Source: a virus (taxonomy: Duplodnaviria; Caudoviricetes). From it: a stretch of 33,166 bases of DNA. Below, piece by piece: positions 117 to 33,048 of the stretch. The stretch spans positions 1 through 33,166 of the IMG/VR virus record IMGVR_UViG_3300037045_000297, one strand, 5' to 3'. How positions within the stretch are numbered: the first letter of the stretch is position 1; each line of letters begins with the position of its first letter. The notes beneath the pieces are model-generated. The model made no database searches. It was not told where the DNA came from and was given only the letters and a program-made list of their open reading frames with translations. A program made the translations under genes and the position numbers.

Positions 117-127
117 GTAACAGCTAT
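117..127 (+). repeat. Left copy of flanking direct repeat (candidate target-site duplication or att core) GTAACAGCTAT
   Basis: Matches GCAACAGCTAT at 33038-33048 at 10/11 positions; the core AACAGCTAT is an exact 9-bp match. Abuts the terminal inverted repeat. Confidence 0.55.
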
Positions 128-151
128 AAAGTATCACCCAATTCTGCAAAT
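128..151 (+). repeat. Left terminal inverted repeat / transposase binding site
   Basis: AAAGTATCACCCAATTCTGCAAAT versus the reverse complement of 33014-33037, AAAGTCTCAAGTAATTCTGCAAAT. Confidence 0.8.
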
Positions 152-161
152 GTGTATCACC

Positions 162-233
162 TGTCACAGTGGTGCTAAGGCTTTAAGGGGTGGCGAGTTA
201 TAGCGGACTGGTTTTAGACTGTGTCACAGTGGT
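162..233 (-). repeat. Two left-end copies of the ACCACTGTGACA motif (TGTCACAGTGGT at 162-173 and 222-233)
   Basis: Exact 12-bp repeats 60 bp apart; same core as the array at 1352-1539. Confidence 0.85.
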
Positions 234-304
234 TTTTAGACTGTTCTGGACGTTTGGGGATCAGGGTTACTGCAAATATGCGCTGGTTTTGGACTGGTTT
301 TGGA
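208..304 (+). repeat. Short degenerate repeats CTGGTTTT(A/G)GA
   Basis: Copies at 208-218, 283-293 and 294-304, with degenerate copies at about 230-240 and 241-250. Confidence 0.7.
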
Positions 305-316
305 AACATCGATTTT

Positions 317-1063
317 TTACAGAAGGGCATCAGATTTATAGACCCGCAACTGAAGCGCAACGGGGCCGATCATGGAAAGCCACTGAGTCTGATCTGCGTC
401 TATAAACTCGATTCTAAAGTCTTTATTGAGGGGTTGGAGGGCAACTCCCTTGCGGGCGACATCATACTGGATCCTTTTCAGAGTAATGCCTGACTCATAT
501 CTGACCGCGCAGATTTTACCATCCAGATCATCCCAGGTGATTTGCTTTTTGATCAGGACGATATCGTCATGCAGGATCTCCGACTCCATACTTCTGCCGT
601 TCACTCTGAAGGCAGCGTATCTGTCCGTGCCGAGTGGTATGTACCGGGTGGGAACTTCGACCGAATCCGCCGGTTCATGCCCTTCAGTCACTTCGATGGG
701 GGTTCCGGCGGAAATTTCCGCCAGGATCGGGAAGATGGCAGTGCGGATGTAAGTCCTATCAAAATCATTGACTAAGGTCGGTTTGCCATCGATGATCTGC
801 ACCCGCTTGGAGGTTTTGACATCGGGTGCCATCTCCCAGGGAGCCTGGATGAACATACTGCCTTCACCTCTTAATAACCAGTTAACATTGATGCCATTTT
901 CCACCAGTTTCGCCAGAAATTCCGACTCCGGATAACGCTCATTGTTCTTATAACGAGCCATTGAATTGGTGGAAATTCCGAATTTCTCATTAAACTGGTA
1001 TTGCTTCAGATTCAATGCTTTAACCAGCAATCCGAGCCTTGTGCCGATATCCTCAGCCTTCAT
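317..1063 (-). CDS. Phage repressor, XRE-HTH plus S24 (LexA/CI-type) autopeptidase
   Basis: N-terminal HTH (LKQYQFNEKFGISTNSMARY...NVNWLLRGEG), Ala-Gly cleavage site (EISAGTP), catalytic Ser (NGRSM) and Lys (ITLKRI). Divergent from the early operon, with a GGAG RBS. Confidence 0.9.
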   Translation of the reverse strand: MKAEDIGTRLGLLVKALNLKQYQFNEKFGISTNSMARYKNNERYPESEFLAKLVENGINVNWLLRGEGSMFIQAPWEMAPDVKTSKRVQIIDGKPTLVNDFDRTYIRTAIFPILAEISAGTPIEVTEGHEPADSVEVPTRYIPLGTDRYAAFRVNGRSMESEILHDDIVLIKKQITWDDLDGKICAVRYESGITLKRIQYDVARKGVALQPLNKDFRIEFIDADQTQWLSMIGPVALQLRVYKSDALL

Positions 1064-1069
1064 ATCTCC

Positions 1070-1306: not shown

Positions 1307-1918
1307 ATGAAAGCGACTACTTACGAGCCTGGGGAGAGGGTGGTCAAGGACGACCACTGTGACAGGCAGACCACTGTGACAAGTGTCACAGTGCTTTTCA
1401 ATCGGGAAAAATCTCCGTCAAAGCTGATTACCAGATGGGTTGACCACTGTGACAGCAACCAGGGCAGGAAATTTGTCACAGTGCTACCTGATTTACCGAC
1501 CACTGTGACACATCGGAAGAGCGGAGCTGTCACAGTGCTTTTACCGGTAACAGAATTTTATATGCAGAGGCTGAGGATGAGCAAAGGCAAGATAAAGGCG
1601 ATCTGGCTGACCGTGGAGCGGGTGGCGGAACTGTTGGGCTGTTCCACCAGGACAGTATGGCGCTATGTGAAGCGTAACCGGGTGATGGTCTATAAGCACC
1701 AGATCACCCAAGGCAGGGCTAGGGTAATGAAAGCCTTCCTGCTGACTGAGCCGGAGATCTTTATCAAAGAGATGGCAGATTGTGAGAGCAGAGAGCTATT
1801 GCCTGCCGAGTTCCTGGAAATCGGGATCGAGGTGGATGGGGTTAAACTAAACAGCGCTCTAATTTATAAGTACAGGAACATTAATAGTGAAAATGGAAGT
1901 TATTATGCAGCCCTATGA
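1307..1918 (+). CDS. Early HTH DNA-binding protein (Ner-position; resembles HTH_17 / MuA I-alpha type) with a repeat-derived N-terminus
   Basis: WLTVERVAELLGCSTRTVWRYVKR HTH; GGAGG RBS 5 nt before ATG 1307. Downstream in-frame ATGs near 1562-1577 are alternative starts. Confidence 0.75.
   Translation: MKATTYEPGERVVKDDHCDRQTTVTSVTVLFNREKSPSKLITRWVDHCDSNQGRKFVTVLPDLPTTVTHRKSGAVTVLLPVTEFYMQRLRMSKGKIKAIWLTVERVAELLGCSTRTVWRYVKRNRVMVYKHQITQGRARVMKAFLLTEPEIFIKEMADCESRELLPAEFLEIGIEVDGVKLNSALIYKYRNINSENGSYYAAL
1352..1539. repeat. Array of seven CACTGTGACA-core sites (candidate operator / transposition enhancer)
   Basis: GACCACTGTGACA at 1352, 1369, 1442, 1498; inverted TGTCACAGTGCT at 1384, 1474, 1528. 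Confidence 0.9.
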
Positions 1919-3986
1919 TTTTACGATTGATGAGTACACCGAGTTCTATAACGCCACCTTTCCCGATCGGGTAAAAGTGCCTGGTATTGTGAAGTCAATC
2001 CTGAATAAAAGCAACAAACCTGAGCAATCAGCGGTGATACCTAGACATAAGGCAGAGAAACCGGAATCAAAATATACAGCATCACCAGAAACTGAGCAAA
2101 AGTCTGACTTTGGTGTTGAGTACCAGCAACCCTTACCGGATAAAGGCATCTTGTCGGCTGACTTCATCGATCTCGACCCCCGGGAAGCCTTACCAATCCA
2201 GTTTGACCGGGAAGCCAGGCTGTTAGGTAACTTCTGCACCCTGGTGCTTAGAAGGCTGGAGAACTGCGAGTCCAAGGTGGAGGAGTGGAAGCAAGTCACC
2301 CAGGATTACAATACAGGTGCACTGGTACCGGAACTCTACCAACTCAGAGGCAACCGCTGTGAGCGTGCTCTACGTTCCTGGATTGACCAGTACCGGCAAT
2401 CCAACCGGGACATGTATGCTCTGCTGCATGGCAATAAGAACCTTAACCGCAAACGCAAGGTCAGTGAGATCGAAGCCAAGATCCTCTTGAGTATATTGCT
2501 GCATCCTAATCGGGTAACCATCGGCTCAGCCATCACCTTGCTCAAATCTCAAGCCAGACTGGGACGTTATGAGTCGCCTACCAGCAAACCCACGCTGAGG
2601 CGTTGGTGTGAGGAGTGGAAGAGCGATAACCTGGCGATCTGGGAGCAGACCAGACGGGGTAGCAAGTACGTGGCTGAGCACATCATCAAGACCATCCACC
2701 GTGACAGCAGACTGCTGAGAGTGGGTCAGGTCTGGGTGGCGGATGGTCATACCCTGGCTTTTGATATCCTTAACCCCAAGACCGGCAAAGCGCAGCGTAT
2801 GACTTTGATCATGGTCTTTGACTGGGCAAGCCGCTATCCGGTGGGAGCCTCACTTGCCTTTACCGAGGATAGCCAGCATATCCAGACTGCTTTCCGTAAC
2901 GGCTTCCTGAACTGGGGAGCTTTGCCGGACTGTGTTTATCTCGATAACGGCAAGGCGTTTAAGTCCAAACTCTTTCATGAGCAGTGGGAGGAGCATGATC
3001 TGGAGCGGGAGTTGGGAGGGATCTTCCCCAAGTTAGGAATAGAAGCTCATTTCGCTGAAAGCTATAATGCCAAAGCCAAAGTGATCGAGCGGTTCTTTAA
3101 AACCTTCCAGGAGCAGTTTGAACGCTTTATCTCCTCCTTTAGAGGTTCTAATATAGCCGATAAACCTGCCACCCTGATGCGGAATGAGCGGTGGGTTAAG
3201 AAGCTGTTCGAGTCGGTACCTCCTACTATAGAGGAGACCATGGGGATGATCGGCTTCTATATCCGGCACATCTATGGCGAAAATGAGCATGGCGGTCTTA
3301 GCAACCGCAAGCCCTGGGAGGTGTTCAGCTCAGCTCCCCTGCCTCCGGACAGGCTGGTTATACCCGGTAAGCTGAACTTCCTGATGCTGAGCGCTGAGCG
3401 TAAGGCAGTGCGCAGTGAGGGAATCAGCTTCAATAAACTCCAATACTGGCATCCTGCCTTAATCGACTATATGGGCAAGCCGGTGGTCTTCCGATACGAT
3501 TATGGAGATGCACGCTGGATCATGGTCTATGACACCAAGGGCAGCTTCATTTGCCAGGCAGAGCTGAGAAGGCTGCAGCATCCGTTCATCCACTTAGATA
3601 AGGATAACCCGGTCTCGCATAAAGAACTGAAACAGGAATACAACCAGGTCAAGAAACTGCAGAGGCTGACTGAACAACGCTCCAAGCTGTTCGTTAAACG
3701 CAATCAGGAGTCGGTGGATAACCTGCTCAAGCCCTATCTGGAGATCACCCCGGAGGCGAATCCCACTTTTATCCAACCACCTATGATCACCGCGCCCAAA
3801 CCCGGAGCGGAGGAAGAGCTCGCCCGGCTGGAGCAGTTGGTGGTCGGGCAGATGCAGGAGGATCAGGCAGATCTTTCATCCTTAGAGACACCCACCCCGG
3901 ATACGGTAGACCTAAGTAATGACCAACCCGATCCTTTCACTGATGCCAGCTTCGCTGAGATGCTGAAAACCATCGGAATCAAATAA
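1887..3986 (+). CDS. MuA-like DDE transposase
   Basis: DDE triad contexts WVADGHT, YLDNGKAF, KVIERFF; two HTH-like segments upstream; Mu-transposase C-terminal motif VVFRYDYGDARWIMVYD..GSFICQA. Start may be 1893 or 1905. Confidence 0.95.
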   Translation: MKMEVIMQPYDFTIDEYTEFYNATFPDRVKVPGIVKSILNKSNKPEQSAVIPRHKAEKPESKYTASPETEQKSDFGVEYQQPLPDKGILSADFIDLDPREALPIQFDREARLLGNFCTLVLRRLENCESKVEEWKQVTQDYNTGALVPELYQLRGNRCERALRSWIDQYRQSNRDMYALLHGNKNLNRKRKVSEIEAKILLSILLHPNRVTIGSAITLLKSQARLGRYESPTSKPTLRRWCEEWKSDNLAIWEQTRRGSKYVAEHIIKTIHRDSRLLRVGQVWVADGHTLAFDILNPKTGKAQRMTLIMVFDWASRYPVGASLAFTEDSQHIQTAFRNGFLNWGALPDCVYLDNGKAFKSKLFHEQWEEHDLERELGGIFPKLGIEAHFAESYNAKAKVIERFFKTFQEQFERFISSFRGSNIADKPATLMRNERWVKKLFESVPPTIEETMGMIGFYIRHIYGENEHGGLSNRKPWEVFSSAPLPPDRLVIPGKLNFLMLSAERKAVRSEGISFNKLQYWHPALIDYMGKPVVFRYDYGDARWIMVYDTKGSFICQAELRRLQHPFIHLDKDNPVSHKELKQEYNQVKKLQRLTEQRSKLFVKRNQESVDNLLKPYLEITPEANPTFIQPPMITAPKPGAEEELARLEQLVVGQMQEDQADLSSLETPTPDTVDLSNDQPDPFTDASFAEMLKTIGIK

Positions 3987-3996
3987 AGGAGTTAAT

Positions 3997-4713
3997 ATGA
4001 AACAAGGCAAACTTGTGCCGATCACCAATGTCAGGAAAGCCGATGCCTGCATCGACTTCCTGCTTAAACGTCCCCGTCTGGAAATGGTAGGGCTGGGCAT
4101 GCTTTACGGCAGACCCGGACTCGGCAAGACCACCTATGCCCAGCGGGTTGCCTATAGCAGAGGCTATGTCTATCTGCGGCTGGAGTCCACCACCACCCCC
4201 AAGACCTTCGCCCGGGACCTGCTGCAAAGCCTGTACATCAGTTATGGCAAGGGAGACTACCTGCCGGCAGGAACGACCAATGCACTCTACAAGCAGTGCA
4301 TCCAACTGCTCTATGACCATGAGGACACAATCATCATGATCGATGAGATAGACTATGCCTTCCGCTACCCCCAATTACTAGGGGCTGTGCGGGACTTGGT
4401 GGATGAGACTCTGGCTGTGGTCATCCTGGTCGGAATGCAGAATGCCAAGGACAGGTTGAACCAGATCAATGAGTACTACTTCGACCGCTGCAATTACTTC
4501 TATGAGTTCCAGAGTGTCAGCAAAGCCGATATCAAACTGATCACCCAAGAGGTGATGAGCATCGAATGCACGGATACCCTGGTCAACTACATCCATCACA
4601 ATGCTGCAGGTAACCTGCGCAAAGCCATGAAACTGATGCATATGCTGGAGAGCAGATACCAGCTTAATCCCATCCAGGCTATGAACGATGTCACGGCTCA
4701 GGGGGCGCTATGA
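3997..4713 (+). CDS. MuB-like AAA+ transposition ATPase
   Basis: Walker A GRPGLGKT, Walker B IIMIDEID, GNLR sensor; directly after the transposase, with an AGGAG RBS. Confidence 0.93.
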   Translation: MKQGKLVPITNVRKADACIDFLLKRPRLEMVGLGMLYGRPGLGKTTYAQRVAYSRGYVYLRLESTTTPKTFARDLLQSLYISYGKGDYLPAGTTNALYKQCIQLLYDHEDTIIMIDEIDYAFRYPQLLGAVRDLVDETLAVVILVGMQNAKDRLNQINEYYFDRCNYFYEFQSVSKADIKLITQEVMSIECTDTLVNYIHHNAAGNLRKAMKLMHMLESRYQLNPIQAMNDVTAQGAL

Positions 4714-5349: not shown

Positions 5350-5844
5350 ATGACACAGGAACTACGGGAACGCAAACTACGTCAGGACATCCATGCCCTG
5401 AGGGTCAAGAAGTTCCACTGGCAATTGGACGGCTTCAGGTTCATCCTCCAGGGTCTGGGTTACGGTGACTCGCTGAGGGCTTTATCTGAAGTCAAGCTAA
5501 CCGAACTCAAAACCCTCCTGCTAACCTACCGCAAGCATGGTCGTCCCCAGTCCTTCACCTTTGATAAGCAGGGCAGGTTCATGTTCGCTCTGATGAAACA
5601 GGCTGGCTGGACTGACTCGGAGCTCAGAGCATTCATGATCAAGCACTTCCACAAAAGCCACTGGAATCTGCTGGCTATTCCGGAGCGTAGAGCGGTAATC
5701 GCTATGCTGCAGAACTATATCCATAAAGCCGGGTACCCTGCTGCTAATAATGAAAATCAAAGCTCAAATGAACATACAAGCACAACTATAAATAAACCAC
5801 ACAAGGAGAACACTAATGGAACAGACAGCCAAGCCCAAGACTAA
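5350..5844 (+). CDS. GemA / Mu gp16-like (DUF1018) protein
   Basis: IHALRVKKF..GFRFILQG..SLRALSEVKLTELK and LRAFMIKHFHKSHWNLL..RRAVIAML patterns; typical Mu early-region position. Confidence 0.75.
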   Translation: MTQELRERKLRQDIHALRVKKFHWQLDGFRFILQGLGYGDSLRALSEVKLTELKTLLLTYRKHGRPQSFTFDKQGRFMFALMKQAGWTDSELRAFMIKHFHKSHWNLLAIPERRAVIAMLQNYIHKAGYPAANNENQSSNEHTSTTINKPHKENTNGTDSQAQD

Positions 5845-6439
5845 GAAGACCACCGACCGTACCAGAACGGATGCCAATGGACAGAGCATCCCCATCTCGG
5901 TCATCAAACCTGAACTACTGCAGCAGGACACTGTCGTTAGCAAAACCATCGACCGGGTCAAGAAACTGCATGACCGTATCGTCTCCGACAAAGCCAAGCT
6001 CTTCGAGGAAGTGGAACTCTATCTGCAATCCGTAGCCGAGAAGAACGGACTCTCCTGGAAAGGCAATGCCCTGCTCAACAGCTTTGACGGCAAGTACCGG
6101 GTGGAGATCAGGTTCAAGGAGCACATCCAATTCGGTCTGGAGTTACAACTGGCTAAGCAGAAGATCGATGAATGCCTCAAAGCCTGGACTTCCGACTCCA
6201 ACGTCAACCTCAGAGCCATCATCAGTGAAGCCTTCCAAGTCGATAAGAAAGGCGAAATTGCCAAGTACCGTATCCTCAGATTACGTAGATACAACATCAA
6301 AGACCCGGTCTGGAAGGAAGCGATGGAACTGATCGATGCCGCTATCCAGGTCGTCTCCACCAAGCAGTATATCACCTTCTATGAGAAAGACGGCTCCGGT
6401 CAAGCCCACCAGATTGTGCTCAATTTCACAGCTCTGTAG
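5816..6439 (+). CDS. DUF3164 family protein of Mu-like phages
   Basis: KGNALLNSFDGKYRV, LQLAKQKIDECL, AFQVDKKG, WKEAMELI motifs. Confidence 0.85.
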   Translation: MEQTAKPKTKKTTDRTRTDANGQSIPISVIKPELLQQDTVVSKTIDRVKKLHDRIVSDKAKLFEEVELYLQSVAEKNGLSWKGNALLNSFDGKYRVEIRFKEHIQFGLELQLAKQKIDECLKAWTSDSNVNLRAIISEAFQVDKKGEIAKYRILRLRRYNIKDPVWKEAMELIDAAIQVVSTKQYITFYEKDGSGQAHQIVLNFTAL

Positions 6440-6497
6440 ATGGAAACTGTGGTATCGTTATGCATCAGGATTTGAACAAAGCACAGGAGAGTGAACT

Positions 6498-6749
6498 ATG
6501 ACACCTTATAACACCAATACCGCAGAGGAGATACAGATCATGAACGTATTCAAGGCTGAGCGCAACTACCGCCCCGATGAGATAGCCGCTGCTCTGCGGG
6601 TTGACCGCTCCAGCGTATACCGCTGGATCAGGGATATCCTTGACCCTCTGCCGGCTTTCCGCACCAAGGAAGGCGGACAACTGCGCTGTACAGGCAGCGA
6701 TCTGAACGCCTACCTGCTCAAGCACAAGGTCCGTCCTGAGTATGAGTAA
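6498..6749 (+). CDS. Small HTH (excisionase/HTH_17-like) protein, candidate late regulator
   Basis: YRPDEIAAALRVDRSSVYRWI..LPAFR; AGGAG RBS. Confidence 0.75.
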   Translation: MTPYNTNTAEEIQIMNVFKAERNYRPDEIAAALRVDRSSVYRWIRDILDPLPAFRTKEGGQLRCTGSDLNAYLLKHKVRPEYE

Positions 6750-7191
6750 TAACATCGGGTTCCGCATTAAGCGGGATAATTGCAAAGTCACCTATTTGAA
6801 CGGAAAGACGGACACAGCCGAACTGGCAATAATTTATGGAGTGTCCGAGATCACCGTTCGCAAGTGGATCAAGTCGGGTAATTGGGATAGCCTGTTCAAA
6901 GAAGAGCGCAAGCTCGATGCCGAGATCAGGACGGCTCGCAAGAGAGCCCTGATCCAAGCCCTGAGGGAGTATGCCAAGAACCCGGCTGATACCGCTCTGC
7001 AGTCTTTAGTCTCTCTGATTAAGCAGAACCAGAAGGATGACGAACCTGCCAAGGAACTCAATGACTATATCGTAAAGTTTTTAGATCAAACCACTGACTT
7101 CATGGTCGAGAAAGGCTATGAGACCTTACTTAAGCAGTTCCAGGCTATCGTCCTAGATCTGGCTGATTATCTACGTATTCGTAACGGATAA
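6742..7191 (+). CDS. Terminase small subunit (N-terminal HTH)
   Basis: ELAIIYGVSEITVRKWIKSGNWD followed by helical region; directly upstream of TerL. Confidence 0.75.
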   Translation: MSNNIGFRIKRDNCKVTYLNGKTDTAELAIIYGVSEITVRKWIKSGNWDSLFKEERKLDAEIRTARKRALIQALREYAKNPADTALQSLVSLIKQNQKDDEPAKELNDYIVKFLDQTTDFMVEKGYETLLKQFQAIVLDLADYLRIRNG

Positions 7192-7244
7192 TATTATGAC
7201 AGCCCTCCGATACCCCCTGACCCCAAGTCCTCCTATCCCCAGTT

Positions 7245-8801
7245 ATGCCTAAGAAGTTTATTCAAAGGCATAACAAGGCACTGACGGAGATCGCCTCAAA
7301 AACGATCTCCGTTTTGCCATTTATAGACGATAATCCAGAGGCTAAGGAAGATCGAATAGCCAGAACCAAAGGGGATGACTGGGATGCTTTCTCATTCTTT
7401 GCCAGAACCTATTTCCCTCATGTCTTTACCTTACCTTTCTGCCCAGCCCACGAGACGATGTTTGATGAAACTGATAAGAGCACAGGCATCATCTCTATCA
7501 CCGGTTTTCGTGGGTTGGGCAAAACGGTACTCATGGGTGTGGTCTATCCCATCTGGAAGATAATCAAGGGTGAACGTTATGTGATACATACTGCAGCCGA
7601 TGTCGATTTGGCGCAAGAACGTACTGCCTTTACCTTGCATGAGTTAATTAACAACCGAAGACTGTTATCTGACTTCTCGGAGCTGCAGCCGGTGGATACC
7701 CTGGATCTGGACTTCTATCTAAAGAATAAGACCCGCATCCGAGCCAGGAGTATCAAACAGTCCCACCGGGGAACCATCAATCCCAAAACTGCCAAGCGAC
7801 CGGGACTCTTGATCTGTGACGATATCGACAAAGAAGAGAACATGGGCAATCAATCCATCGGTAAGCGCAGAATGGAGAAGATCACCCAGGAGATTGCCGG
7901 TGCCTTGGACCCGGGACAACCCGGCAAGGTAATCTGGCTGGGGAACCTGGTACACCCCAATTATGCCATCTGCCAGTTCCTGAACCTCATAATAGACGAA
8001 ATAAAGGCAGAACACCCGGAAGTCGACTCCAATGTCGTATCTGTTCTGAAAACCCACCAAAAAACGATTTTGCGCTTTTCTTTGGAGAACCCTGACGGTA
8101 CATCAACCTGGGAAGAGCAGTATCCTACCACTACCTTACATAACCTGAGAGCCAAGTTCGGTAATACAGGCTACCAGAGAGAGATGTTGGGACAGCCGGT
8201 CATTGAAGGCAATATCTTCAAGCATCACTGGTTTACCAAGTATAGAACACTACCAATCCCCACTCAAATGAAACGGGTCTGGCTATATGCTGACCCGGCC
8301 TGGGGAGAGAAAGGCTGTTTTAAGGCAGTCATCTCCATCGGTTATGATGGTAATAAATTTTACGTTCTCAGTGTCTGGATACGTCAGACTGAGAATACCA
8401 AGTTCTTCCGGTATTACTATGATACCTATCAGGAATTGGACAGAACCTATAGAGTCAAGTTCAGATCAGCTATTGAAACAACCTATGGACAAGGGCGTAT
8501 CTTATCCGACTTTGACAGGTGGGCAACCGATAACCATTTACCACCCATTTCCCATAGGATCAAGCGCATCGATAACAAGGAAAACAAGAACCTGAGAATA
8601 GAGAGAACCGAGACGCTCATTGAAACTGCCAAAATCCTCTTCCCGGACGGGCAGGATACTCCCACCCTGATCAGTCAGTTCCTGACCTATCCTGATGGCT
8701 ATATCGATGGCTGTGATGCCTTGGCTGGATGTCTGGAACGTTTTTCCGAGTACGACATTGGCAGAAACAGAGTCAGGGTCAGGAGATATATCTTTAGATG
8801 A
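7245..8801 (+). CDS. terL: Terminase large subunit
   Basis: Walker A GFRGLGKT, Walker B LLICDDID, coupling motif LGN, nuclease acidic motifs YADPA and DGCDALA. Confidence 0.92.
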   Translation: MPKKFIQRHNKALTEIASKTISVLPFIDDNPEAKEDRIARTKGDDWDAFSFFARTYFPHVFTLPFCPAHETMFDETDKSTGIISITGFRGLGKTVLMGVVYPIWKIIKGERYVIHTAADVDLAQERTAFTLHELINNRRLLSDFSELQPVDTLDLDFYLKNKTRIRARSIKQSHRGTINPKTAKRPGLLICDDIDKEENMGNQSIGKRRMEKITQEIAGALDPGQPGKVIWLGNLVHPNYAICQFLNLIIDEIKAEHPEVDSNVVSVLKTHQKTILRFSLENPDGTSTWEEQYPTTTLHNLRAKFGNTGYQREMLGQPVIEGNIFKHHWFTKYRTLPIPTQMKRVWLYADPAWGEKGCFKAVISIGYDGNKFYVLSVWIRQTENTKFFRYYYDTYQELDRTYRVKFRSAIETTYGQGRILSDFDRWATDNHLPPISHRIKRIDNKENKNLRIERTETLIETAKILFPDGQDTPTLISQFLTYPDGYIDGCDALAGCLERFSEYDIGRNRVRVRRYIFR

Positions 8802-10535: not shown

Positions 10536-10596
10536 AACATCCTCTTCGCTTTTTGATAGATTTGGCTTTGCCTTTTCTAGGCCTATTTAGAATTCA

Positions 10597-12683: not shown

Positions 12684-12740
12684 ATCATTATCGTCCTATC
12701 TATTAAATCATCGGAGTTATCTTCTACCAAATGTGATAAT

Positions 12741-12830: not shown

Positions 12831-12845
12831 AGTTATATAATGTCG

Positions 12846-22063: not shown

Positions 22064-22081
22064 CCATACACAGGAGGTAAA

Positions 22082-23830: not shown

Positions 23831-23863
23831 CCATAACAACCAATAAGTAGATAAGGAGTATCT

Positions 23864-24214: not shown

Positions 24215-24759
24215 TGCCTCCTTCTCCAATCACAACACCCACCTATCCTACCGGCACCACTCAGAGTGATCTGCTGTTTTCCGCTTTGATGGAAGGTATG
24301 GTGGCAGATAAGATCTACTTCGGCTTCGGTACATATACCGATGCCGATGTGGATACTATCTATGCCAATAAAGCTGCAGCCGAATCTGAACTGCTCACCA
24401 ACTTCGATTCCTTGGGCGAGTTGGCAGAGAAACCGGGTAAAGCCGATTCCAAGCTGACTAAGCTCAAGACCCGTAACTACACCATACCAGGCAAAAGAAC
24501 CAGTACGGTGGAACTGTCCATAGTCGGCATGTCAGCCAAGCAGAAGAACTATCTGGAAAGTCGTTCTTTCTCGGGTAAGGACATGACCATCGTGATCGTC
24601 TCCACTGAAGTGGATCGCATCATCATCTTCAATGGCATGCGTTGGACAGTCGAATGGTCGGGAGAAGCTGACGGTCTGTTCTCTGTGGTTATCTCCACTG
24701 AGTTCGCAGGCACTACTGCCGGTAAGGTCTATCTCAAGAAGGATATCCCCGTCACCTGA
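24214..24759 (+). CDS. Probable major tail tube protein
   Basis: 181 aa, beta-rich, located between capsid and tail chaperone; LGEL...TIPGKRTSTVELSI pattern. Confidence 0.65.
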   Translation: MPPSPITTPTYPTGTTQSDLLFSALMEGMVADKIYFGFGTYTDADVDTIYANKAAAESELLTNFDSLGELAEKPGKADSKLTKLKTRNYTIPGKRTSTVELSIVGMSAKQKNYLESRSFSGKDMTIVIVSTEVDRIIIFNGMRWTVEWSGEADGLFSVVISTEFAGTTAGKVYLKKDIPVT

Positions 24760-24760
24760 T

Positions 24761-25000
24761 ATGCCTCCCAGAAAGAAAGTAACACCTGAACCTCAACTGC
24801 TGCCTGAGTGCCAGTGCAAGCCGGAGATCAAAGACAAGGTCGACAGCCTGCATGAGGAGATCTATGGCAATGGAAACAGCAATAACTCACTGGTCACCCG
24901 CATGGCGAGAGTGGAGACGAACATGAAGCTACTTCTGGGCGTCTCCATCTCCCAATTCTTTATGCTGATCGGGGTGGCTATCAAGATGTTCTTTGATTGA
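24761..25000 (+). CDS. Small coiled-coil protein with C-terminal transmembrane helix (XhlA/holin-like)
   Basis: Likely start ATG 24761, right after the tube stop; EIYGNG..SLVTRMARVETNMK followed by a hydrophobic tail. The ORF track's longer start overlaps the tube gene. Confidence 0.55.
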   Translation: MPPRKKVTPEPQLLPECQCKPEIKDKVDSLHEEIYGNGNSNNSLVTRMARVETNMKLLLGVSISQFFMLIGVAIKMFFD

Positions 25001-25016
25001 AATGAAAGGATTAACT

Positions 25017-25367
25017 ATGCAAGAACCAAAACTGACATATAACCAGCTCAGGCAGATCCTGTGCCTGACCATCTCCAACGGTACCCTGAAAGCCAAGTTG
25101 GAAGACTTCCTCTCCGGCAAGCTGACCAAGGTCTCGGAAGTTGAGCTGTTAGAAATCATCTCCACCTCGGAAGCCGATAAAGACCTGATTCGCATCCTCT
25201 CCGGACAAGATGCTGATGATCTGGATGCTGTAACCGCCTTGGAGTATATCTCCTCTTTTTTCGCCTATATCAGAGCCAACAGTCAGAGGTGCAAAAGTTG
25301 GCTCGGGAGTTTAGGATTGGCGGTGACAGGAAAGGCACCCGTTACCCCTATGAGAAGTTCGAAATGA
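25017..25367 (+). CDS. Tail assembly chaperone (gpG-like, short form)
   Basis: AAGGA RBS before ATG 25017; contains the in-frame slippery heptamer T TTT TTC at 25256-25262. Confidence 0.7.
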   Translation: MQEPKLTYNQLRQILCLTISNGTLKAKLEDFLSGKLTKVSEVELLEIISTSEADKDLIRILSGQDADDLDAVTALEYISSFFAYIRANSQRCKSWLGSLGLAVTGKAPVTPMRSSK

Positions 25368-25468
25368 TCATGCGCAAATTAGGCTTCACTAATGACGACT
25401 TCAACAGCCTGACTCTGCCGGAGTTGTATCTGCGCCTTTGCATGAGTGATCCCAAAGGAGATATCTGA
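25017..25468 (+). CDS. Tail assembly chaperone, -1 frameshifted long form (gpGT-like)
   Basis: The -1 frame is open from the slip site to TGA 25466-25468 (RLYQSQQ...KFEMIMRKLGFTNDDFNSLTLPELYLRL...), and this stop overlaps the next ATG. Confidence 0.72.
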
Positions 25469-26229
25469 TGGATGCTTTAATCGGCTGGATCGGTGGTAAA
25501 CGTCTGCTTAGAAAGACCATCTCCCAGTATGTACCGGATGACATAACAGGCTATATCGAACCCTTCGGTGGTGCTGCCTGGATGCTCCTGCTAAAGGATA
25601 GATGGGCTGATCTGGAAGTGTATAATGACTTAGACTACAGATTAGTGAATCTCTTCCTGCAGGTCAAGTACCACCCTGATGAACTGATTCGGGAACTGGA
25701 CTATATGGTTGCCAGCCGCAAGCTGTTTGGCGAGATCATGAAACAGGAAGGTCTGACCGAGATACAGCGGGCTGCCAGGTTCATGTTCCTGATCACCAGA
25801 AGTTATGGCTCAAAGGGCGACAGCTTCGGCACATCTCAGAAACGTGGCACTTCCAGTATGTATAATCGTCTTGATCGCATCAAAGAGCTGCACAAACGTC
25901 TGGATATGGTGATCATTGAGAACCTGTCCTATGAGAAGGTTATAGATAAGTATGATACCAAGTCCAACTTCTTTTACTGCGACCCTCCCTATATGGTTGG
26001 CTATACCTATGAGAACTCCAAGCAGTTCAGTCATGATGACCTGCATAAAAAGCTCAAGAACATCAAAGGTCGATTTATTCTGAGCTATGACGATAATCCT
26101 GATGTCTTGAAGATATATAAAGGCTACCACATTAAGCACGTAACCAGAACCAAGGGTATCAACCGCAAAGAAGGTAAATCGGAATATAATGAAGTGATCA
26201 TTGCTAACTTCCCTTTGGAGGTTAGATGA
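25468..26229 (+). CDS. Dam/D12-family DNA adenine methyltransferase 1
   Basis: WIGGKRLL, YIEPFGGAAW, VYNDLD, FFYCDPPY. Confidence 0.93.
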   Translation: MDALIGWIGGKRLLRKTISQYVPDDITGYIEPFGGAAWMLLLKDRWADLEVYNDLDYRLVNLFLQVKYHPDELIRELDYMVASRKLFGEIMKQEGLTEIQRAARFMFLITRSYGSKGDSFGTSQKRGTSSMYNRLDRIKELHKRLDMVIIENLSYEKVIDKYDTKSNFFYCDPPYMVGYTYENSKQFSHDDLHKKLKNIKGRFILSYDDNPDVLKIYKGYHIKHVTRTKGINRKEGKSEYNEVIIANFPLEVR

Positions 26230-27002
26230 ACTCCATCATCTCCTGGGTGGGCGGCAAACGGCTGCTTAGAAAGAAGATCCTGCCTCTTATTCCCAAGCAT
26301 GACATCTATTGTGAGGTGTTTGGCGGAGCCGCTTGGGTGCTGTTCGGCAAGTCGCCCAATAAGGAAGACTGGCAAACCAATCCCAAAAGCAGATATACTG
26401 AGGTCTATAACGATATTAATGGAGACTTAGTCAACTTCTGGAAGTATATTAAGAACCACCCGGAAGCCTTCGTGACTGAGCTTAACCAGTATCTAATCTC
26501 CAGAGAGCTATTCGATGCCTTTACCCAGCATCAGCCCAAGACTGAACTGGAACGGGCTATCCGCTTTTACTTCCAGTTATCCTGTTCTTACGGCTCCCGT
26601 TCCAAGAACTTCTGCATCATGCAGGGCTACAAATACATGCCCCTGCGCCAACTGGAGAAGGTGAAGGTAGCCTCCGAGAGATTACAGCAGGTGATCATTG
26701 AAAAGCAGGACTTTGAGAAGATCATTAACCGCTATGACAGTCCCAATACGTTCTTTTACTTAGACCCACCCTATTACACAAAGGAGCACTTATACGATAG
26801 AGAAGACGCAGATGCTTTTACCAAGCATGAAGAGATGGCAATACTGCTGAGGACAATAAAGGGCAAGTTCCTGCTGTCCTACAATAATGAAGCCTACATC
26901 AAGAAGCTATATAAAGGCTTTACCATTGAAACAGTGGAAGCCCAATATACTGTCTCAGGCAGTTTCCAGACTCAGACTGAGTTGATGATCAAGAATTATT
27001 GA
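26226..27002 (+). CDS. Dam/D12-family DNA adenine methyltransferase 2
   Basis: WVGGKRLL, YCEVFGGAAW, VYNDIN, FFYLDPPY. Confidence 0.93.
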   Translation: MNSIISWVGGKRLLRKKILPLIPKHDIYCEVFGGAAWVLFGKSPNKEDWQTNPKSRYTEVYNDINGDLVNFWKYIKNHPEAFVTELNQYLISRELFDAFTQHQPKTELERAIRFYFQLSCSYGSRSKNFCIMQGYKYMPLRQLEKVKVASERLQQVIIEKQDFEKIINRYDSPNTFFYLDPPYYTKEHLYDREDADAFTKHEEMAILLRTIKGKFLLSYNNEAYIKKLYKGFTIETVEAQYTVSGSFQTQTELMIKNY

Positions 27003-27005
27003 TAA

Positions 27006-27470
27006 TCAATCTTTCGATTTAAGATGTTTCAAGATTTGATATGAAAAAGATGATATGTCAGTCATAACTTTTATAGATTCAGCTGATGCGAATGAAAAGA
27101 TAGCCAATATTACTGAAGCTACTATTGTTAATACCATTGCTATAGTGTTATCAGAGAGTTTTATGGCACCAATTAAACCTCCGATGAGTAAAACCCATCC
27201 AAGTATTGTATATATGATCACTAGACCATTTAAAGCTGGATATTTAAGACCTTCCTCGTGTAAATCAACATCATTTTCAACATATACGAAACTTGGATCT
27301 CTTCTTTTCAACTCATTAACTAATTTTTCTTTATCATCATTATCTAATACGTACTCATCTAGGATCTTCAATAAATCCTCTGATGTTACTTCCGATAATA
27401 CAGATGGGGAATACCTTTCATCTTCCGGCATCTCCCATAAATCTTCAACAGTTAGATGCTTTTTGTCCAT
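27006..27470 (-). CDS. Two-TM membrane protein (moron)
   Basis: Acidic N-terminal domain plus two hydrophobic helices; AT-rich; GGAGG RBS; upstream TTGACA at 27522-27527 (minus strand). Confidence 0.8.
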   Translation of the reverse strand: MDKKHLTVEDLWEMPEDERYSPSVLSEVTSEDLLKILDEYVLDNDDKEKLVNELKRRDPSFVYVENDVDLHEEGLKYPALNGLVIIYTILGWVLLIGGLIGAIKLSDNTIAMVLTIVASVILAIFSFASAESIKVMTDISSFSYQILKHLKSKD

Positions 27471-27534
27471 ATGATCCTCCCTAAATTTATAATAATTCCT
27501 CTTTAAGATAAATATCTAAAGTGTCAATACTATT

Positions 27535-30156
27535 ATGCCTGAGCTAACATTCAAACTCGTCCTGATCACCGATGATGCCAATCTCAAGCTGAGTGAGGTA
27601 ACCCAGGAGGCTAATACTGCCAAAGAGCAGATAGAGAAGCCTGCTGCGGTCAAGATCTCGGCAGAACAAGCTTTGGCTACCATTCGTGACGTCAAGATAG
27701 CCTTTGACGGAGTGCTGCAAGTGCTTGGCTCGGTTGTCTCTTCCATGAATGACTTTCTTAATGCTTCACTGTCACAAAGACAAGCGGTAACCTTAGCCAA
27801 GATAGCCTTTGGAGAAGCTGCCGGTGAGATGGGTAACTTCGCCTCAGCCATGCAGAAAGTCACTAACTTCGAAGATGATGTGATGTTGGCTCTTATGTCT
27901 AAGTTAGCACAGACCTTCAAGCTGAATAAAGATGAGATACAGCAACTGGTCCCTGTATTATTGGACTTTGCTGAAGCTAACAAAAGCACCGGCATGACCA
28001 TCGAGTCAGCCTTTGATCTGATGGGACGTGCCTTGAACGGACATACTGAGATGTTGGGTCGGTACGGCATTGAACTGGATTCCACCCGGCTGAAGACCGA
28101 AGGTGTGTCTTATCTGGTAGAGAAGCTATCTAATGATTATGGGGGAACTGCTGAAGCTTTAGCTGATTTAAGGTTACAGAATGCCAATACCTGGGGTGAC
28201 ATCAAAGAGACCATTGGTGACATGCTCAATGTACTGATTACTCCACTATTAAAGGGACTGCGCTCCCTTATGGAAGGCTATCAGAACCTGTCTCCTGTTA
28301 TGAAAGGCTTTGTCACAGGACTGATGATTGCCATCCCTGTGATCGGGACAGTAACCACTGCCGTCATTACTCTGACAGCCGCCTACCACGCTCTTAAAAT
28401 AGCCATCAACCCCGTAGCCGGGATTATCGGTCTGGCAGTGGGAGCGGTGGCAGGTCTGGGCTTTGCCTATGCTTCCACTCAGATAGCCAATCAGTCGGCA
28501 ATGGATACTCAAGATGAGTATAGGGACTCGGTAGATCAAACTGCAGTTAGTGTGGAGTCCTTGGTCTTCAAGCATAAGGAGATAGCCTTCAGCATTGACT
28601 ATGTGGAAGCCAAGCGACGTCTGAATGAGATCAAGCGGGAGATGGCTGATTATGAGGAGACTGTCAAACTCATGCAGACCGATATGGTCCTGGTTAGTGA
28701 CGATTACTTCGATAGACAGAGAGAACGTACTATTGAAGCATCCGAACTGGCTAAGAAGATTGCAGCTGAAGATGCCCAAGCCGTAGCTGAGTATAACAAG
28801 GAAAAGGTGCGTGTTGAGACCGAAGCCACATTGTCGGGCATTGCTCTGTTGGAGTATAAGCTTGAATATGCCAGGCAACACTTCAAGGCATTGGGCAAGG
28901 TGACAGCCGATAACGCTGAGGAGCATATCTCTACCTTGGAAAAGGTCAAGAGCTTGGAACAGCAGTTAACTCAAGCCAAACAGCGAGACCTGGATGCCCT
29001 GCGCTCAATGGAGCAGAAATACAACACCCTTTCCCTTGAAGATGCTGTAGCTCGTAGACAGAGTGAACTGGAAACCCAAAGAGATGCCGAATTAGAGAAA
29101 GCCAGATTGCTCAATGCCTCTGAGCAGACCTTAGCTAACATCAGAACCTATTATGCCAATGAGATCACCAAGGTGGAACAGGATGCGGTTGCTCAAAGGC
29201 TCAAACAGGCAGAGACCGAGCAGAGGGATAAACAAAGGTTAGCCGAGGAAGAGCAGCGCAGATTGCAGGATTTGGAAGATACCCGGTTTGACTTTACCCA
29301 GCGTTTACTGGATTTATCGGGCAATACCTATCAGGCGGAACTGGATGCCATTGATAACTACTATACCAAGAAGAAAGACAAACTTATAGAAGCAGGCATC
29401 ACCGAGGAGCAGATCACCCGACAGATTGAACTGGCAAAGTCCAGGATCAGGGAGCAGTTCGACCAGAAGCATATAGCCGGAGTCAGTCAGATATTAGGCA
29501 ACCTTGCCAAGACCTCCGAAGCCTTCGGCAAGAAAGGCTTTGCTCTGTGGAAAACCTTGTCCGTAGCCCAGGCGATGATGGATACCTATTCCTCAGCCAA
29601 TGCCGCCTATAAGGCTATGGCTGGCATACCCATAATTGGACCCGGATTGGCTATTGCCGCTGCTGCCGCAGCCATCGGAGCCGGTCTGGCTAATGTGGTC
29701 GCTATCAGCAATACCGAGCCACCCAAGGCAGCTAAGGGCGGTATGCTGATCGGTAATTCCCATAGTGAGGGAGGTATCCTGATTGAAGCTGAAGGTGAGG
29801 AGTATATCACTGCTAAGGATAGAGTAAAAGCCTTGGGCAGGAACATCTTTGACTTTCTCAACTTTGCTCCCCTGAATCAGGTGAAGCTTGCCTTTGCCGG
29901 ACTGCCTGTTCCCAGTGTCCCCCTGCCTGCCAACGTCGGCTCATATTACGGCTCAGGTGGCAGTATCTCAGGCAGAGGTAGTATGGATGCGCTTCTTGAT
30001 ATAATGAGCGATATGCGGGATAAGATCGTGGAGTTACAGCAGAAAGTAACTGAGTCCAAGCCCATAATCGATATCCATGTTGACCCACTCTCCAATGATC
30101 CGGTCAGGGTGAGTGAGATAGCCGATACCGGCAAGCAGATCAGGAGTGAAGTCTGA
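27535..30156 (+). CDS. Tape measure protein
   Basis: 873 aa, Ala/Leu-rich helical, LGRYGI motif, hydrophobic central stretch, long coiled coils, C-terminal AKGG..GNSHSEGGILIEAEGEEY. Confidence 0.92.
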   Translation: MPELTFKLVLITDDANLKLSEVTQEANTAKEQIEKPAAVKISAEQALATIRDVKIAFDGVLQVLGSVVSSMNDFLNASLSQRQAVTLAKIAFGEAAGEMGNFASAMQKVTNFEDDVMLALMSKLAQTFKLNKDEIQQLVPVLLDFAEANKSTGMTIESAFDLMGRALNGHTEMLGRYGIELDSTRLKTEGVSYLVEKLSNDYGGTAEALADLRLQNANTWGDIKETIGDMLNVLITPLLKGLRSLMEGYQNLSPVMKGFVTGLMIAIPVIGTVTTAVITLTAAYHALKIAINPVAGIIGLAVGAVAGLGFAYASTQIANQSAMDTQDEYRDSVDQTAVSVESLVFKHKEIAFSIDYVEAKRRLNEIKREMADYEETVKLMQTDMVLVSDDYFDRQRERTIEASELAKKIAAEDAQAVAEYNKEKVRVETEATLSGIALLEYKLEYARQHFKALGKVTADNAEEHISTLEKVKSLEQQLTQAKQRDLDALRSMEQKYNTLSLEDAVARRQSELETQRDAELEKARLLNASEQTLANIRTYYANEITKVEQDAVAQRLKQAETEQRDKQRLAEEEQRRLQDLEDTRFDFTQRLLDLSGNTYQAELDAIDNYYTKKKDKLIEAGITEEQITRQIELAKSRIREQFDQKHIAGVSQILGNLAKTSEAFGKKGFALWKTLSVAQAMMDTYSSANAAYKAMAGIPIIGPGLAIAAAAAAIGAGLANVVAISNTEPPKAAKGGMLIGNSHSEGGILIEAEGEEYITAKDRVKALGRNIFDFLNFAPLNQVKLAFAGLPVPSVPLPANVGSYYGSGGSISGRGSMDALLDIMSDMRDKIVELQQKVTESKPIIDIHVDPLSNDPVRVSEIADTGKQIRSEV

Positions 30157-31640
30157 TGGCTAATCTATTCAAAGTGGACTTCATCATGGGCAAGACCGAT
30201 GCAGTGGATTATGGTCAGATTAAACATAGTCTGACAGATACCACCACTGACAGGCAGATCATCTCCCTTTCAGTCTCTGCCGATAAGCTGCAGTCCATCT
30301 CCAACTACAGCCGGGAACCCAAGCGTCTAACCTTTGAGTGTTTCCCGACTGCCTGGATTACCGATAATATCCTCTCCGGAGTAAATGAACATGAACGCTA
30401 CATCTCCCATTATGAGGTTAAGGTCTATCGGGACAACGTCCTGCTCTTTACCGGCATCATTGATACCTCCCAGTTAAGCTACGATGTCATCACCGGCATC
30501 CTTAAGTTCACTTGTTATGATAAGATCAAGCTGTTATCGGTCTATTCCGACCTGACCCACTATTACAGTCTGACAGCAGGTTACCTGCCAATTTGGATAC
30601 TTGGCTATTTCCTGCAGGATATCGAACAGACAATTCCCATAGCCCTACCTTATAGTAACCAGTTCACATTACCCGACCTATACATCGGAACAGGTGATGC
30701 CTTAAACATAGCTCATGTGGATTATAACGACATCCTGCAGTTTCCCGATCCGCCCGGAGGCTGGACCTATACATATCATAATACATCTTGGGCTGCTCCC
30801 AAGTATGGCTATATAGTAGACACCATAGCCAACCGGGTCACCTTTGTCTTTGCATATAAAGTGGTGATCCAAGCCACCTATCCCAGTCCTGCTACTACCA
30901 AGTACCAAGGCAGGTTCAGAGGCAGAATCCTGCACTTCTACAACAACATCTGTCCCGTGATCATGGAATACGATGAGAAGACCGGCTGGGAGGATAGCCT
31001 TACTTCTCTGGATAATGCCTATAACGAACTACTCAGCTTTTTCAATGACAATGGCATCTCCGATACCCAGTTAAACAACCTGACCAGTACCGGCACCTTA
31101 GGTAATAGCCACTATGGCAGCAGTCAGTTGGTCAATACCTGGGTGGAAGCCGACTTCTATGGCAATCTGATGCCTGTCCGTTTACATCCCGGCAAGTCCT
31201 ATGAGACCTTTAAAGATGAACAGACCGATAACATCAAGGTGCTTCAGGCTATGCTCATGCTCTATAATGCCACTCTTTATACCAGTCCCTCCGGCAGCAT
31301 CATCCTCAAGAACAAGGATGCCTACTCCTCTACTATAATAGATATAGCGGATGAGGATGTGGTCACCTTCATCACCAAGCGGGGTAATCAGGAGCAACCG
31401 GACACTGCCATCCTGGACATCTTAGCCGGAGATACCTCTCAACTGCAGAACCAGATAAAAAGTTACCTGATTGACTTCTATGACTCCAAGTGGAGCATCG
31501 ATGCCACTATCGACCAGTTAAGTAAATACAACCTTACTCTGCAGGGCAAGATCAGGATCAGAGGCAGGGTCTATGCCATTACTGAACTGGAGCGTAACTA
31601 CCTATCAGATGAATATAAACTCAAGGCATGGTTAATATGA
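30156..31640 (+). CDS. Tail-tip / baseplate hub (Tal-like) protein
   Basis: Directly follows TMP; VKVYRDNVLLFTGIID..LKFTCYD and LQGKIRIRGRVYAITELE hub-like patterns. Confidence 0.6.
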   Translation: MANLFKVDFIMGKTDAVDYGQIKHSLTDTTTDRQIISLSVSADKLQSISNYSREPKRLTFECFPTAWITDNILSGVNEHERYISHYEVKVYRDNVLLFTGIIDTSQLSYDVITGILKFTCYDKIKLLSVYSDLTHYYSLTAGYLPIWILGYFLQDIEQTIPIALPYSNQFTLPDLYIGTGDALNIAHVDYNDILQFPDPPGGWTYTYHNTSWAAPKYGYIVDTIANRVTFVFAYKVVIQATYPSPATTKYQGRFRGRILHFYNNICPVIMEYDEKTGWEDSLTSLDNAYNELLSFFNDNGISDTQLNNLTSTGTLGNSHYGSSQLVNTWVEADFYGNLMPVRLHPGKSYETFKDEQTDNIKVLQAMLMLYNATLYTSPSGSIILKNKDAYSSTIIDIADEDVVTFITKRGNQEQPDTAILDILAGDTSQLQNQIKSYLIDFYDSKWSIDATIDQLSKYNLTLQGKIRIRGRVYAITELERNYLSDEYKLKAWLI

Positions 31641-32071
31641 AGGGATTTCGCATGATCAGAGTCGATAATGGGTATAGCACCTATACCTGCGAACATGGAC
31701 AGGTGGAATATATACCCAAAATAAAGTACCGTATAGAGAAAAGGAACGCCTTTGATCCCAGCATAATCCACCAGAGAGAGCCGTACCGGGAAGACACCAT
31801 CAATCTGGAGGCAGTGATGTATCCTGAGGAATACAGTGCTTTTCTCTATTTCCTGACTCAGCCGGGTAAGTTCTATATCGAGTTCAACTGGTACAGCATC
31901 CTGATAAGGCAATACCCGGTCATCATAGCCCAGTTACCCAAAATGCCCGATGATCTGCATGAATACCCGGAAAAGATTAAAGTCACTCTGGAATCCAGAT
32001 ATGTGGGAGAGCCACCCTTTATCAACTTCGACTACTATACCACCCTGGATGACCATGAGTCCGTTTATTAA
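31628..32071 (+). CDS. Small tail-tip protein (possibly Dit/gpM-like)
   Basis: Position in the tail module; INLEAVMYPEEYSAFLYFL..GKFYIEF pattern. Start may be 31637. Confidence 0.45.
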   Translation: MVNMKGFRMIRVDNGYSTYTCEHGQVEYIPKIKYRIEKRNAFDPSIIHQREPYREDTINLEAVMYPEEYSAFLYFLTQPGKFYIEFNWYSILIRQYPVIIAQLPKMPDDLHEYPEKIKVTLESRYVGEPPFINFDYYTTLDDHESVY

Positions 32072-32117
32072 CAAAATATACAAAGATCAGAACCTATACT
32101 ATATTTAAGGAGACAAT

Positions 32118-32789
32118 ATGTATAAATTTGGAATCAGCTATTACATGATGAGCGCTGCCAGCCGTATCCCTCTGACCGGAGTCAAAGTCCGACTGGTCAG
32201 ACCAGGAAGTGACTTCTATCATGGTATCCCTGTGCATGAGACCCCTGCCAACTCAGGCTATTATGAGACAGATAAGTTAGAAGTGACTGACTGGGGCTTT
32301 TATGAGATCTGGGATGACCGGGTTAAGGAAGAGGGCTCTTTTTCGGGCAAGACCTGTATCGTAGGTCAGCTTGACAGCTATGGCATCAAAGATAAAGCCA
32401 TCGGCACCAATCAGGTGGATAATGAAGCCATCACCTCCGATAAGCTTTCAGCCGAGGCAGTCAAGACCAAGAACCTGGCTAACGGCATCATACCACTTTC
32501 TAAGATGATCTGCGAGATCCAAGACCAGAGCCAGGGCAGAGGGATGCAGAGCAATCAGTCTCCACCACATATGGAATTGGATGATCTTGCCGAGCATATC
32601 CTTGTTAAAGAATATGATCACATACCGCATATCATCCTGACTCCTTGGTGTGACAGTAATCTCTTTATCAAGGATGTCAAGCATGAGGAGAGGCAAATAA
32701 TTATAACCATAGCCAAAGGTCAGCGTTTCGATGCTCCCGAATGGAGATATACTATCCTCGCTATATCAAGTGAACCTAACAATGACTAA
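32118..32789 (+). CDS. Short tail fibre / receptor-binding-like protein
   Basis: Central 10-residue-period repeats (DKAIGTNQVD NEAITSDKLS AEAVKTKNLA) as seen in phage fibres; last gene of the tail module; AAGGAG RBS. Confidence 0.55.
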   Translation: MYKFGISYYMMSAASRIPLTGVKVRLVRPGSDFYHGIPVHETPANSGYYETDKLEVTDWGFYEIWDDRVKEEGSFSGKTCIVGQLDSYGIKDKAIGTNQVDNEAITSDKLSAEAVKTKNLANGIIPLSKMICEIQDQSQGRGMQSNQSPPHMELDDLAEHILVKEYDHIPHIILTPWCDSNLFIKDVKHEERQIIITIAKGQRFDAPEWRYTILAISSEPNND

Positions 32790-32800
32790 AATCAAAACTA

Positions 32801-33037
32801 TCCATTTGCAGAAATGCTGATACTTTCACTAAATTTGGTATTAATCATCAGTTTGAACCCTGAAATTACCTAACACACTTGTATGATTGAAGTTGGAAAA
32901 TTTCATTTGCAGAATTAAATGAAACTCCATTTGCAGAAATGCTGATACTCATTTGCAGAAACCTTGATACTCTGCATCCTGTAAAAAAGCCGATTTGCAG
33001 AATTGGTGATCCGATTTGCAGAATTACTTGAGACTTT
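32801..33037 (+). repeat. Right-end array of six ATTTGCAGAA-N4/5-TGA(T)AC-like sites (transposase binding sites)
   Basis: ATTTGCAGAA at 32804, 32905, 32929, 32951, 32993, 33014; 32801-32824 and 32926-32949 are identical 24-mers. Confidence 0.9.
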
Positions 33038-33048
33038 GCAACAGCTAT
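33038..33048 (+). repeat. Right copy of flanking direct repeat GCAACAGCTAT
   Basis: 10/11 match to 117-127; abuts the right terminal inverted repeat. Confidence 0.55.

Follow-up and report, generated by a model that had tools for sequence, protein, structure and literature searches.

Phage Mu is the textbook example of an indiscriminate, gene-breaking phage. Mu is reported to insert only with difficulty close to start sites and promoters (PMC7350765), and it is listed without a selector (PMC10293859). Transposable prophages with TA-TA ends and 6-bp target duplications have been described in Leptospira, and their occurrence elsewhere was left open (PMC8705779). The TnGBS integrative and conjugative elements, ISLre2 and ISKra4 (p-MULT 3 and 4) insert in one orientation, with the right end upstream of a primary-sigma -35 box (PMC3942029). 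Here we describe a transposable prophage in the virus record IMGVR_UViG_3300037045_000297, the whole of which (33,166 bp) was analyzed and is called the window. The element occupies positions 125 to 33040 (5'-TATAAAG...CTTTGCA-3') and is a complete Mu-type transposable prophage of 32.9 kb, which produced a 5-bp target duplication, ACAGC, when it inserted. Its left tip is TA and its right tip TG. The reading as a whole, which we consider probable, is that such a prophage belongs to a family that likely steers its right end to a point upstream of a host promoter, about 30 to 70 bases from the -35 box.

The ends and the target duplication were placed as follows.
120 to 124, + strand: left copy of the target duplication ACAGC, host DNA (G001 comparison, empty site, end pairs)
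125 to 151, + strand: true left tip (5'-TA) and first transposase-binding box, TCA-N7-CTGCAAAT, spaced as in the Mu left end (start of homology with relatives; loose end at 125 in run X4)
252 to 277, + strand: second left-end box, presumably L2-like (motif scans)
32801 to 33040, - strand: right end with six transposase-binding boxes and a 5'-TG tip, ...TTTGCA-3' on the + strand (motif scan; runs X3 and X4 each have a loose end at 33040)
33041 to 33045, + strand: right copy of the target duplication ACAGC (G001 comparison, run contigs, end pairs)

Other insertions of the same phage gave the same limits. The match with G001, a 96%-identical phage at a different site, starts at 125 and stops at 33040, and CCCTT stands on both of its flanks. 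Run X4 showed breaks at 125 and 33040 with the flanks of G001 (not counted as independent), and run X3 showed a third right flank, again at 33040. The empty site, which the initial annotation had proposed to look for, was found in runs X1, X2 and X3, whose contigs join window position 127 directly to 33049. In run X2, a 2,029-bp contig carries window positions 1 to 127 and 33040 to 33166 with a 9-base overlap. Run X1 may come from the source sample; its depths (filled site 45.6, empty site 80, flank 125.7) fit a mixed population, sequencing depth not being equal to the share of cells. Each window flank has exactly 127 bases in common with the empty allele, which we read as an assembly-graph edge. 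The empty site holds one copy of a 9-mer and by itself cannot tell a duplication of 5 bp from one of 9 bp.

The exact repeat flanking the element is 9 nt long (119-127 = 33040-33048) and is made up of ACAGC, TAT (element at 125-127, host at 33046-33048) and A (element at 33040, host at 119). The matching bases beyond ACAGC are chance. From flank composition, about 2% of insertions with a true 5-bp duplication are expected to show an exact repeat of at least 9 nt around it, so that one such case is unremarkable. The initial annotation had correctly called a complete transposable phage whose left end lacks TG, the left tip being TA. The flanks that it took for a repeat of 9 to 11 bp, GTAACAGCTAT at 117-127 and GCAACAGCTAT at 33038-33048, are present, but they were parsed wrongly and the repeat of that length is a coincidence. 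Its inverted repeat, 128-151 against 33014-33037 (24 nt, 83% or 20/24 identical), is real, but the tips lie further out, at 125-151 and 33014-33040 (21/27 identical).

Across the family, 17 of 24 paired ends had a duplication of exactly 5 bp and none had one of 9 to 11 bp. Ten of these pairs came from virus and genome records: eight gave 5 bp, one a 16-bp overlap and one none. In three of the eight, the two ends lie on separate contigs and it was the duplication itself that served to match them; the empty site of one of these three was present in another locus. Among the 14 candidate pairs from genomes, nine gave 5 bp (two being the same insertion) and five gave 0 to 1 bp.

We then compared the terminal bases of the family. 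The left-junction set comprised 124 loci, 78 with an anchored end and 46 without, and the anchor was set inside the end, so that the terminal letters do not steer the count. Five of 68 distinct left rows were dropped because their records stop short of the end and the anchor had fallen on an internal operator; 62 of the remaining 63 distinct left junctions started with TA and one with TT. A left-end pattern matched 97 of 232 genomes of the phylum Cloacimonadota, compared with 2 for the reversed control pattern. A hand count of the 150 genome matches listed gave 130 TA, 15 CA and 5 other; a further 178 matches lie outside this count. Right tips were mostly TA, and the TG of the window is the minority form. 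By motif, there are two transposase boxes at the left end and six at the right, an asymmetric arrangement to which the transposase is predicted to bind. When viral contigs were scanned for a single box, chance matches prevailed (9/13; many of 94), and the matches were filtered by a second box or the left-end motif.

With TA on the left and TG on the right, the window differs from the 5'-TG...CA-3' termini of Mu-like phages. In the trees (quick and FastTree), a 34-kb TG...CA prophage with a 5-bp duplication nests within the TA clade; therefore, the second base has undergone either repeated change or reversion. Because of this nesting, it is likely that the enzyme accepts both pyrimidines in the position ahead of the terminal A. 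The occurrence of TA/TA, TA/TG and TG/CA ends on closely related transposases provides material for tests of terminal-dinucleotide function.

The Leptospira prophages (PMC8705779) share with the window family TA tips, TG-CA relatives in the same hosts and a normal DDE triad, whereas they have a B3-related transposase and a 6-bp duplication, compared with 5 bp in the window family. The window family's transposase is not B3-related: phmmer gave no B3 or L. weilii match at E<10. The transposase of one L. weilii prophage, possibly of the TA type, groups with B3. A clade of the L. weilii and Cloacimonadota transposases was rejected (approximately unbiased test, p 0.017; quick tree with long branches), and because of this rejection the TA ends likely arose separately in Leptospira and in the window family. 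They are a second and probably independent instance of the published variant. To the question left open in PMC8705779, the answer is that TA-ended prophages do occur outside Leptospira.

We next turn to where the family inserts. The 5-bp target has Y at position 2 in 46 of 62 cases and R at position 4 in 44 of 62, as in the Mu target CYSRG (PMC7350765), while the central S of that target was not seen (30/62, not significant). Unlike Mu, the family inserts upstream of -35-like hexamers. An outward-pointing TTGAC(A/T) lay 15 to 69 nt outside 46 of 124 deduplicated junctions, compared with 4.2 to 6.7% of intergenic positions; 6.7% is the most favorable neutral class, and "neutral" divergent gaps were included in the background. 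In an open count of hexamers outside the ends, CTTGAC and TTGACA were the top two (41 seen, 1.1 expected), first by some 40 orders of magnitude in p. The distances formed a peak, with 40 hexamers at 30 to 69 nt, 6 at 70 to 144 nt and none at 0 to 14 nt, over a flat background.

The position is also oriented. An outward TTGAC(A/T) stood 15 to 70 nt outside 32 of 47 right ends and 15 of 77 left ends (background 4 to 7%). A wider count gave 34/50 right and 19/91 left ends (p 6e-8), and the polarity held when miniature elements were removed (30/38 versus 16/83). For a held-out set, 60 further ends were picked from the end lists with their flanks unseen, and one duplicate was dropped; the hexamer was found at 29 of 40 on the right but at 3 of 19 on the left (p 6e-5), and at right ends it faced the element in 1 of 40. 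Pooled right-end distances ran from 30 to 69 nt with a median of 45, and 11 of 14 duplication-confirmed insertions with a true right end had the hexamer at 31 to 64 nt. A downstream open reading frame (ORF) was present in 32 of 36 hexamer cases, compared with 40 of 63 without a hexamer. Elements that lack a transposase take the same position relative to the hexamer. The oriented, promoter-upstream position is thus a replicated statistical result, for which we can only infer the cause. The near-random, promoter-avoiding insertion of Mu-like phages was not seen among these sites, all of them surviving ones. In the window, the insertion site looks like a divergent promoter region, and the host hexamers are placed as follows.
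74 to 109, - strand: three outward host TTGAC(A/T) hexamers, located 15, 33 and 45 nt beyond the left end
33094 to 33099, + strand: host TTGACA, 53 nt outside the right end, pointing outward, promoter-like

Several side observations concern the sites themselves. A palindromic host repeat of TTAATCAAGCGTTAA units lies near the insertion sites L099, L047, L191, L430, L434, L436 and L437; it is near three right ends without a hexamer and possibly marks a second target class. A perfect TTATCCACA, which we take to be a DnaA-box-like motif, lies between the right end and TTGACA in G002 (L006:1745-1800). In L115/L251, L096/L204, L030/L047, L077:1194-1223, L184 and G016, different family members were found 1, 15 and about 106 bp apart at the same host locus, or family ends stand back to back, 7 or 17 bp apart. 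Such close and back-to-back insertions suggest hot spots and weak target immunity.

The steps by which such insertion might proceed can be drawn by analogy with Mu, for which end binding, terminal-dinucleotide nicking, staggered strand transfer and ATPase-assisted capture are described (PMC3145075, PMC3562280). The transposase would bind the repeated end boxes and nick after the terminal 3'-YA, with TA and CA both accepted. The target strands would be attacked 5 bp apart, with the AAA+ ATPase helping in target capture. A promoter-bound factor, either the RNA polymerase holoenzyme or a phage helix-turn-helix (HTH) protein on the hexamer, may nucleate the ATPase on the upstream side. Such nucleation would give polar, loosely spaced insertion and leave genes and promoters intact. 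The genes concerned lie at the start of the early region.
1887 to 3986, + strand: DDE transposase, 699 residues; D286, D353 and E401 align with the Mu triad
3997 to 4713, + strand: MuB-like AAA+ ATPase, 238 residues
4710 to 5324, + strand: third early gene, HTH protein (Pfam TrmB at residues 87-133)

The third early gene was present in 105 of 122 family loci, most misses being short contigs. A profile of it matched 12 of 12 family loci tested, the deepest branch included, and 0 of 8 reference regions, several of which end short of the relevant position. A 9.8-kb cargo transposon keeps the gene alongside the transposase and the ATPase. Searches of Pfam, NCBIfam and PDB gave no TniQ/TnsD match; the protein had no PDB sequence match, its Atlas matches were only to unnamed or HTH clusters, and BLAST revealed no internal repeat. 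Its AlphaFold model is of low confidence (pLDDT 55) and has two HTH-like units. With that low-confidence model, Foldseek found no PDB match at E<=0.001 and one unnamed viral match. Tentatively, and with some doubt, the protein may be a target selector of a new kind, which would recognize either the -35 box or the polymerase bound there and load the transpososome upstream in one orientation, serving the phage and its cargo and miniature derivatives across many Cloacimonadota genomes. The lineage would then have evolved a safe-harbor system of its own. The Tn7-like elements with protein selectors (PMC10293859) are alike in their DDE transposase and AAA+ ATPase and, if the third gene does select the target, in that as well; unlike theirs, this gene has no TniQ/TnsD profile match, and the target is a class of sites rather than one att site. 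In TnGBS, ISLre2 and ISKra4 (PMC3942029), insertion is likewise oriented with the right end upstream of a -35 box, whereas these have a Mutator-type transposase, a fixed distance of 15 to 17 bp and no phage genes. The window family, a whole phage with a Mu-type transposase and ATPase, uses distances of 30 to 70 nt (30 to 69 nt at right ends) and thus falls outside p-MULT 3. The literature searched, which covered subscription journals thinly, yielded no account of a Mu-type phage that targets the region upstream of promoters, nor any paper on transposable phages of Cloacimonadota.

If promoter-upstream targeting is true, it would show that target control of the Tn7 or TnGBS kind is within reach of a transposable phage. 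It would also explain the tolerance of family ends in 97 of the 232 phylum genomes searched, and it could supply a gene-sparing integration tool.

A number of observations weigh against the reading of a Mu-type prophage steered to promoters. Seven of the 24 candidate pairs lack a 5-bp duplication (one 16-bp overlap, six of 0 to 1 bp); several of the 0-1 bp genome pairs are miniature elements or are probably not true pairs, and the overlap, in G016, is best read as two insertions 11 bp apart that were joined in assembly. The background comprises 400 kb of host-type DNA from four genomes, one of which supplied 16 of the 20 stretches. Evidence for a -10 box is weak (strict TAnnnT in 9/47 versus 24/289; relaxed in 22/53 versus 14/53 at a control offset), and the word "promoter" therefore rests on the hexamer and the downstream ORF. 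About a quarter of right ends have no hexamer (11/40 in the held-out set). The spacing is broad (34 to 62 nt from the 10th to the 90th percentile), unlike that of fixed-distance selectors, and no helical phase or periodicity was found in the right-end distances. The third gene is tied to targeting by synteny and retention only. Every site is a survivor in natural populations and so has passed selection; because survival bias may contribute, active targeting is something that we infer.

Passive targeting is a somewhat unlikely account, in which the ATPase or transposase prefers bent or A/T-tract DNA upstream of strong promoters, with no polymerase contact and no dedicated selector. An A/T tract lies 3 to 7 nt upstream of the hexamer, the right-end distances are broadly spaced, and Mu inserts at the edges of MuB-bound A/T DNA (PMC7350765), all of which would fit. 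However, the AT content of the flanks is just 56 to 61%, the enriched word is the hexamer itself rather than A/T runs, and the choice of phage end that faces the promoter is not easily accounted for by DNA shape alone. This account overlaps the favored one, which leaves the recruiting factor unfixed.

A more improbable account is survival: insertion would be near-random as in Mu, and only copies in the harmless gap upstream of a promoter would persist, in the orientation in which read-through from the left-end repressor spares the next gene. Selection or preference for non-coding DNA does act, since the genomes concerned are 87% coding and yet 94 of the 101 long-flanked junctions fall outside ORFs, and the bias in the target 5-mer (Y at 2, R at 4) is Mu-like. 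Survival predicts, however, a flat profile with more hexamers at 70-144 nt than at 30-69 nt, where 6 and 40 were seen, and the best neutral class reaches 6.7%, compared with about 70% at right ends. At junctions read as assembly-graph edges, where the empty allele probably coexists, the hexamer stood at 53, 49 and 75 nt and was lacking in the fourth, a small sample. The peak and the polarity are what survival alone fails to predict.

The options raised by the initial annotation (a duplication of 9 to 11 bp, an att-like core similar to the ends, or the loss of about 6 bp from a left end that is now defective) have almost no probability left: the single 9-mer at the empty site and the one overlapping record, G016, would allow them, whereas other insertions of the window phage break at 125 and 33040, the pairs favor 5 bp, the flanks have no common core and the left tips are conserved. 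The flanks bear no resemblance to the ends: all that the 62 distinct left flanks have in common is the N-Y-N-R-N bias known from Mu, each 5-mer is found at most twice, and the A before the duplication is at background (15/62). The left ends of relatives start with TA in the same register in 62 of 63 cases, and an identical left end stands at another site with a perfect duplication (G001). The homology of relatives starts at 125, which leaves no room for tips at a TG at 44, 86 or 104. When homologous ends were collected and their flanks tabulated as had been proposed, neither variable 9-11 bp duplications nor an invariant core appeared. Site-specific integration is likewise disfavored by the lack of a common flank core and of any recombinase among the 33 ORFs scanned. 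A site preference does exist, of another kind: position relative to a -35-like hexamer.

Several derivatives of the family were found. Miniature elements of about 150 to 340 bp (L140/L159:501-843, L095, L101, L335, L376, L380, L382) combine a left-type with a right-type end, their tips being TA or TG, and no matching duplication was seen for single copies. In L376, two direct miniature copies are jointly flanked by CATGA, like a 3.2-kb composite transposon. Cargo elements of 3 to 10 kb with family ends and 5-bp duplications were found in L368, L372, L373, L377 and L378; some have no transposase, and two are bounded by two left-type ends. The transposase-less elements are consistent with mobilization in trans.

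The remaining features of the window are as follows.
161 to 233, no strand: two GTCACAGTGGT repeats, putatively operator-like (motif scan)
317 to 1063, - strand: CI-like repressor (HTH and S24)
1307 to 1918, + strand: HTH protein, Ner/excisionase-like
1358 to 1534: seven further TGTCACA/TGTGACA copies, of the same putative function (motif scan)
5350 to 6749, + strand: GemA-like, DUF3164 and small HTH genes
6742 to 9673, + strand: terminase small and large subunits, head morphogenesis protein
9678 to 18895, - strand: low-GC cargo of 9 kb
19095 to 32789, + strand: lysozyme, portal, protease-capsid, two adenine methylases, tape measure and tail genes

The window phage works like Mu and fits the definition of a Mu-like phage except in its tips and target bias. 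A transposase with the Mu C-terminal domain stands next to an AAA+ transposition ATPase (PF09299, phrog_310, phrog_296), and virion, packaging and lysis genes and a GemA-like gene lie between the ends; the GemA match (E 3e-4) is below the Pfam cut-off. Mu and Mu-like phages (D3112 group, BalMu-1, phiRTG5, SuMu) are alike in having a repressor, an HTH gene, a DDE transposase, an AAA+ ATPase, a GemA-like gene and virion genes, several unequally spaced transposase boxes per end and a 5-bp duplication. Unlike theirs, the tips of the window family are mostly TA, and its ATPase is shorter and followed by a family-specific HTH gene; residue 33 of the ATPase aligns with MuB residue 95, and the N terminus is about 60 residues shorter. 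The window transposase is just 21 to 28% identical to those of cultured phages among the matches listed. Named relatives are located in Cloacimonadota genomes, and the host is, from their location, presumably a Cloacimonadota bacterium. Host flank 1-127 gave only two weak partial matches against the 232 phylum genomes.

The cargo at 9678-18895 lies amid the late region and encodes an HNH nuclease, the restriction enzyme and methylase of an NgoMIV-like system, and two large proteins that carry secretion C-terminal sorting domains. At 22082-23830, an XkdF-type protease is fused to a virion structural domain, and upstream of it is an HK97-type portal rather than a Mu-type head module. Gene scans of the window identified no major tail protein. 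Two tandem D12-class adenine methylase genes with similar starts lie at 25468-27002. At 31973-32170, other and often deeper contigs in X1 to X4 match parts of the last tail genes, and sequence related to these genes thus exists elsewhere in the X1-X4 communities.

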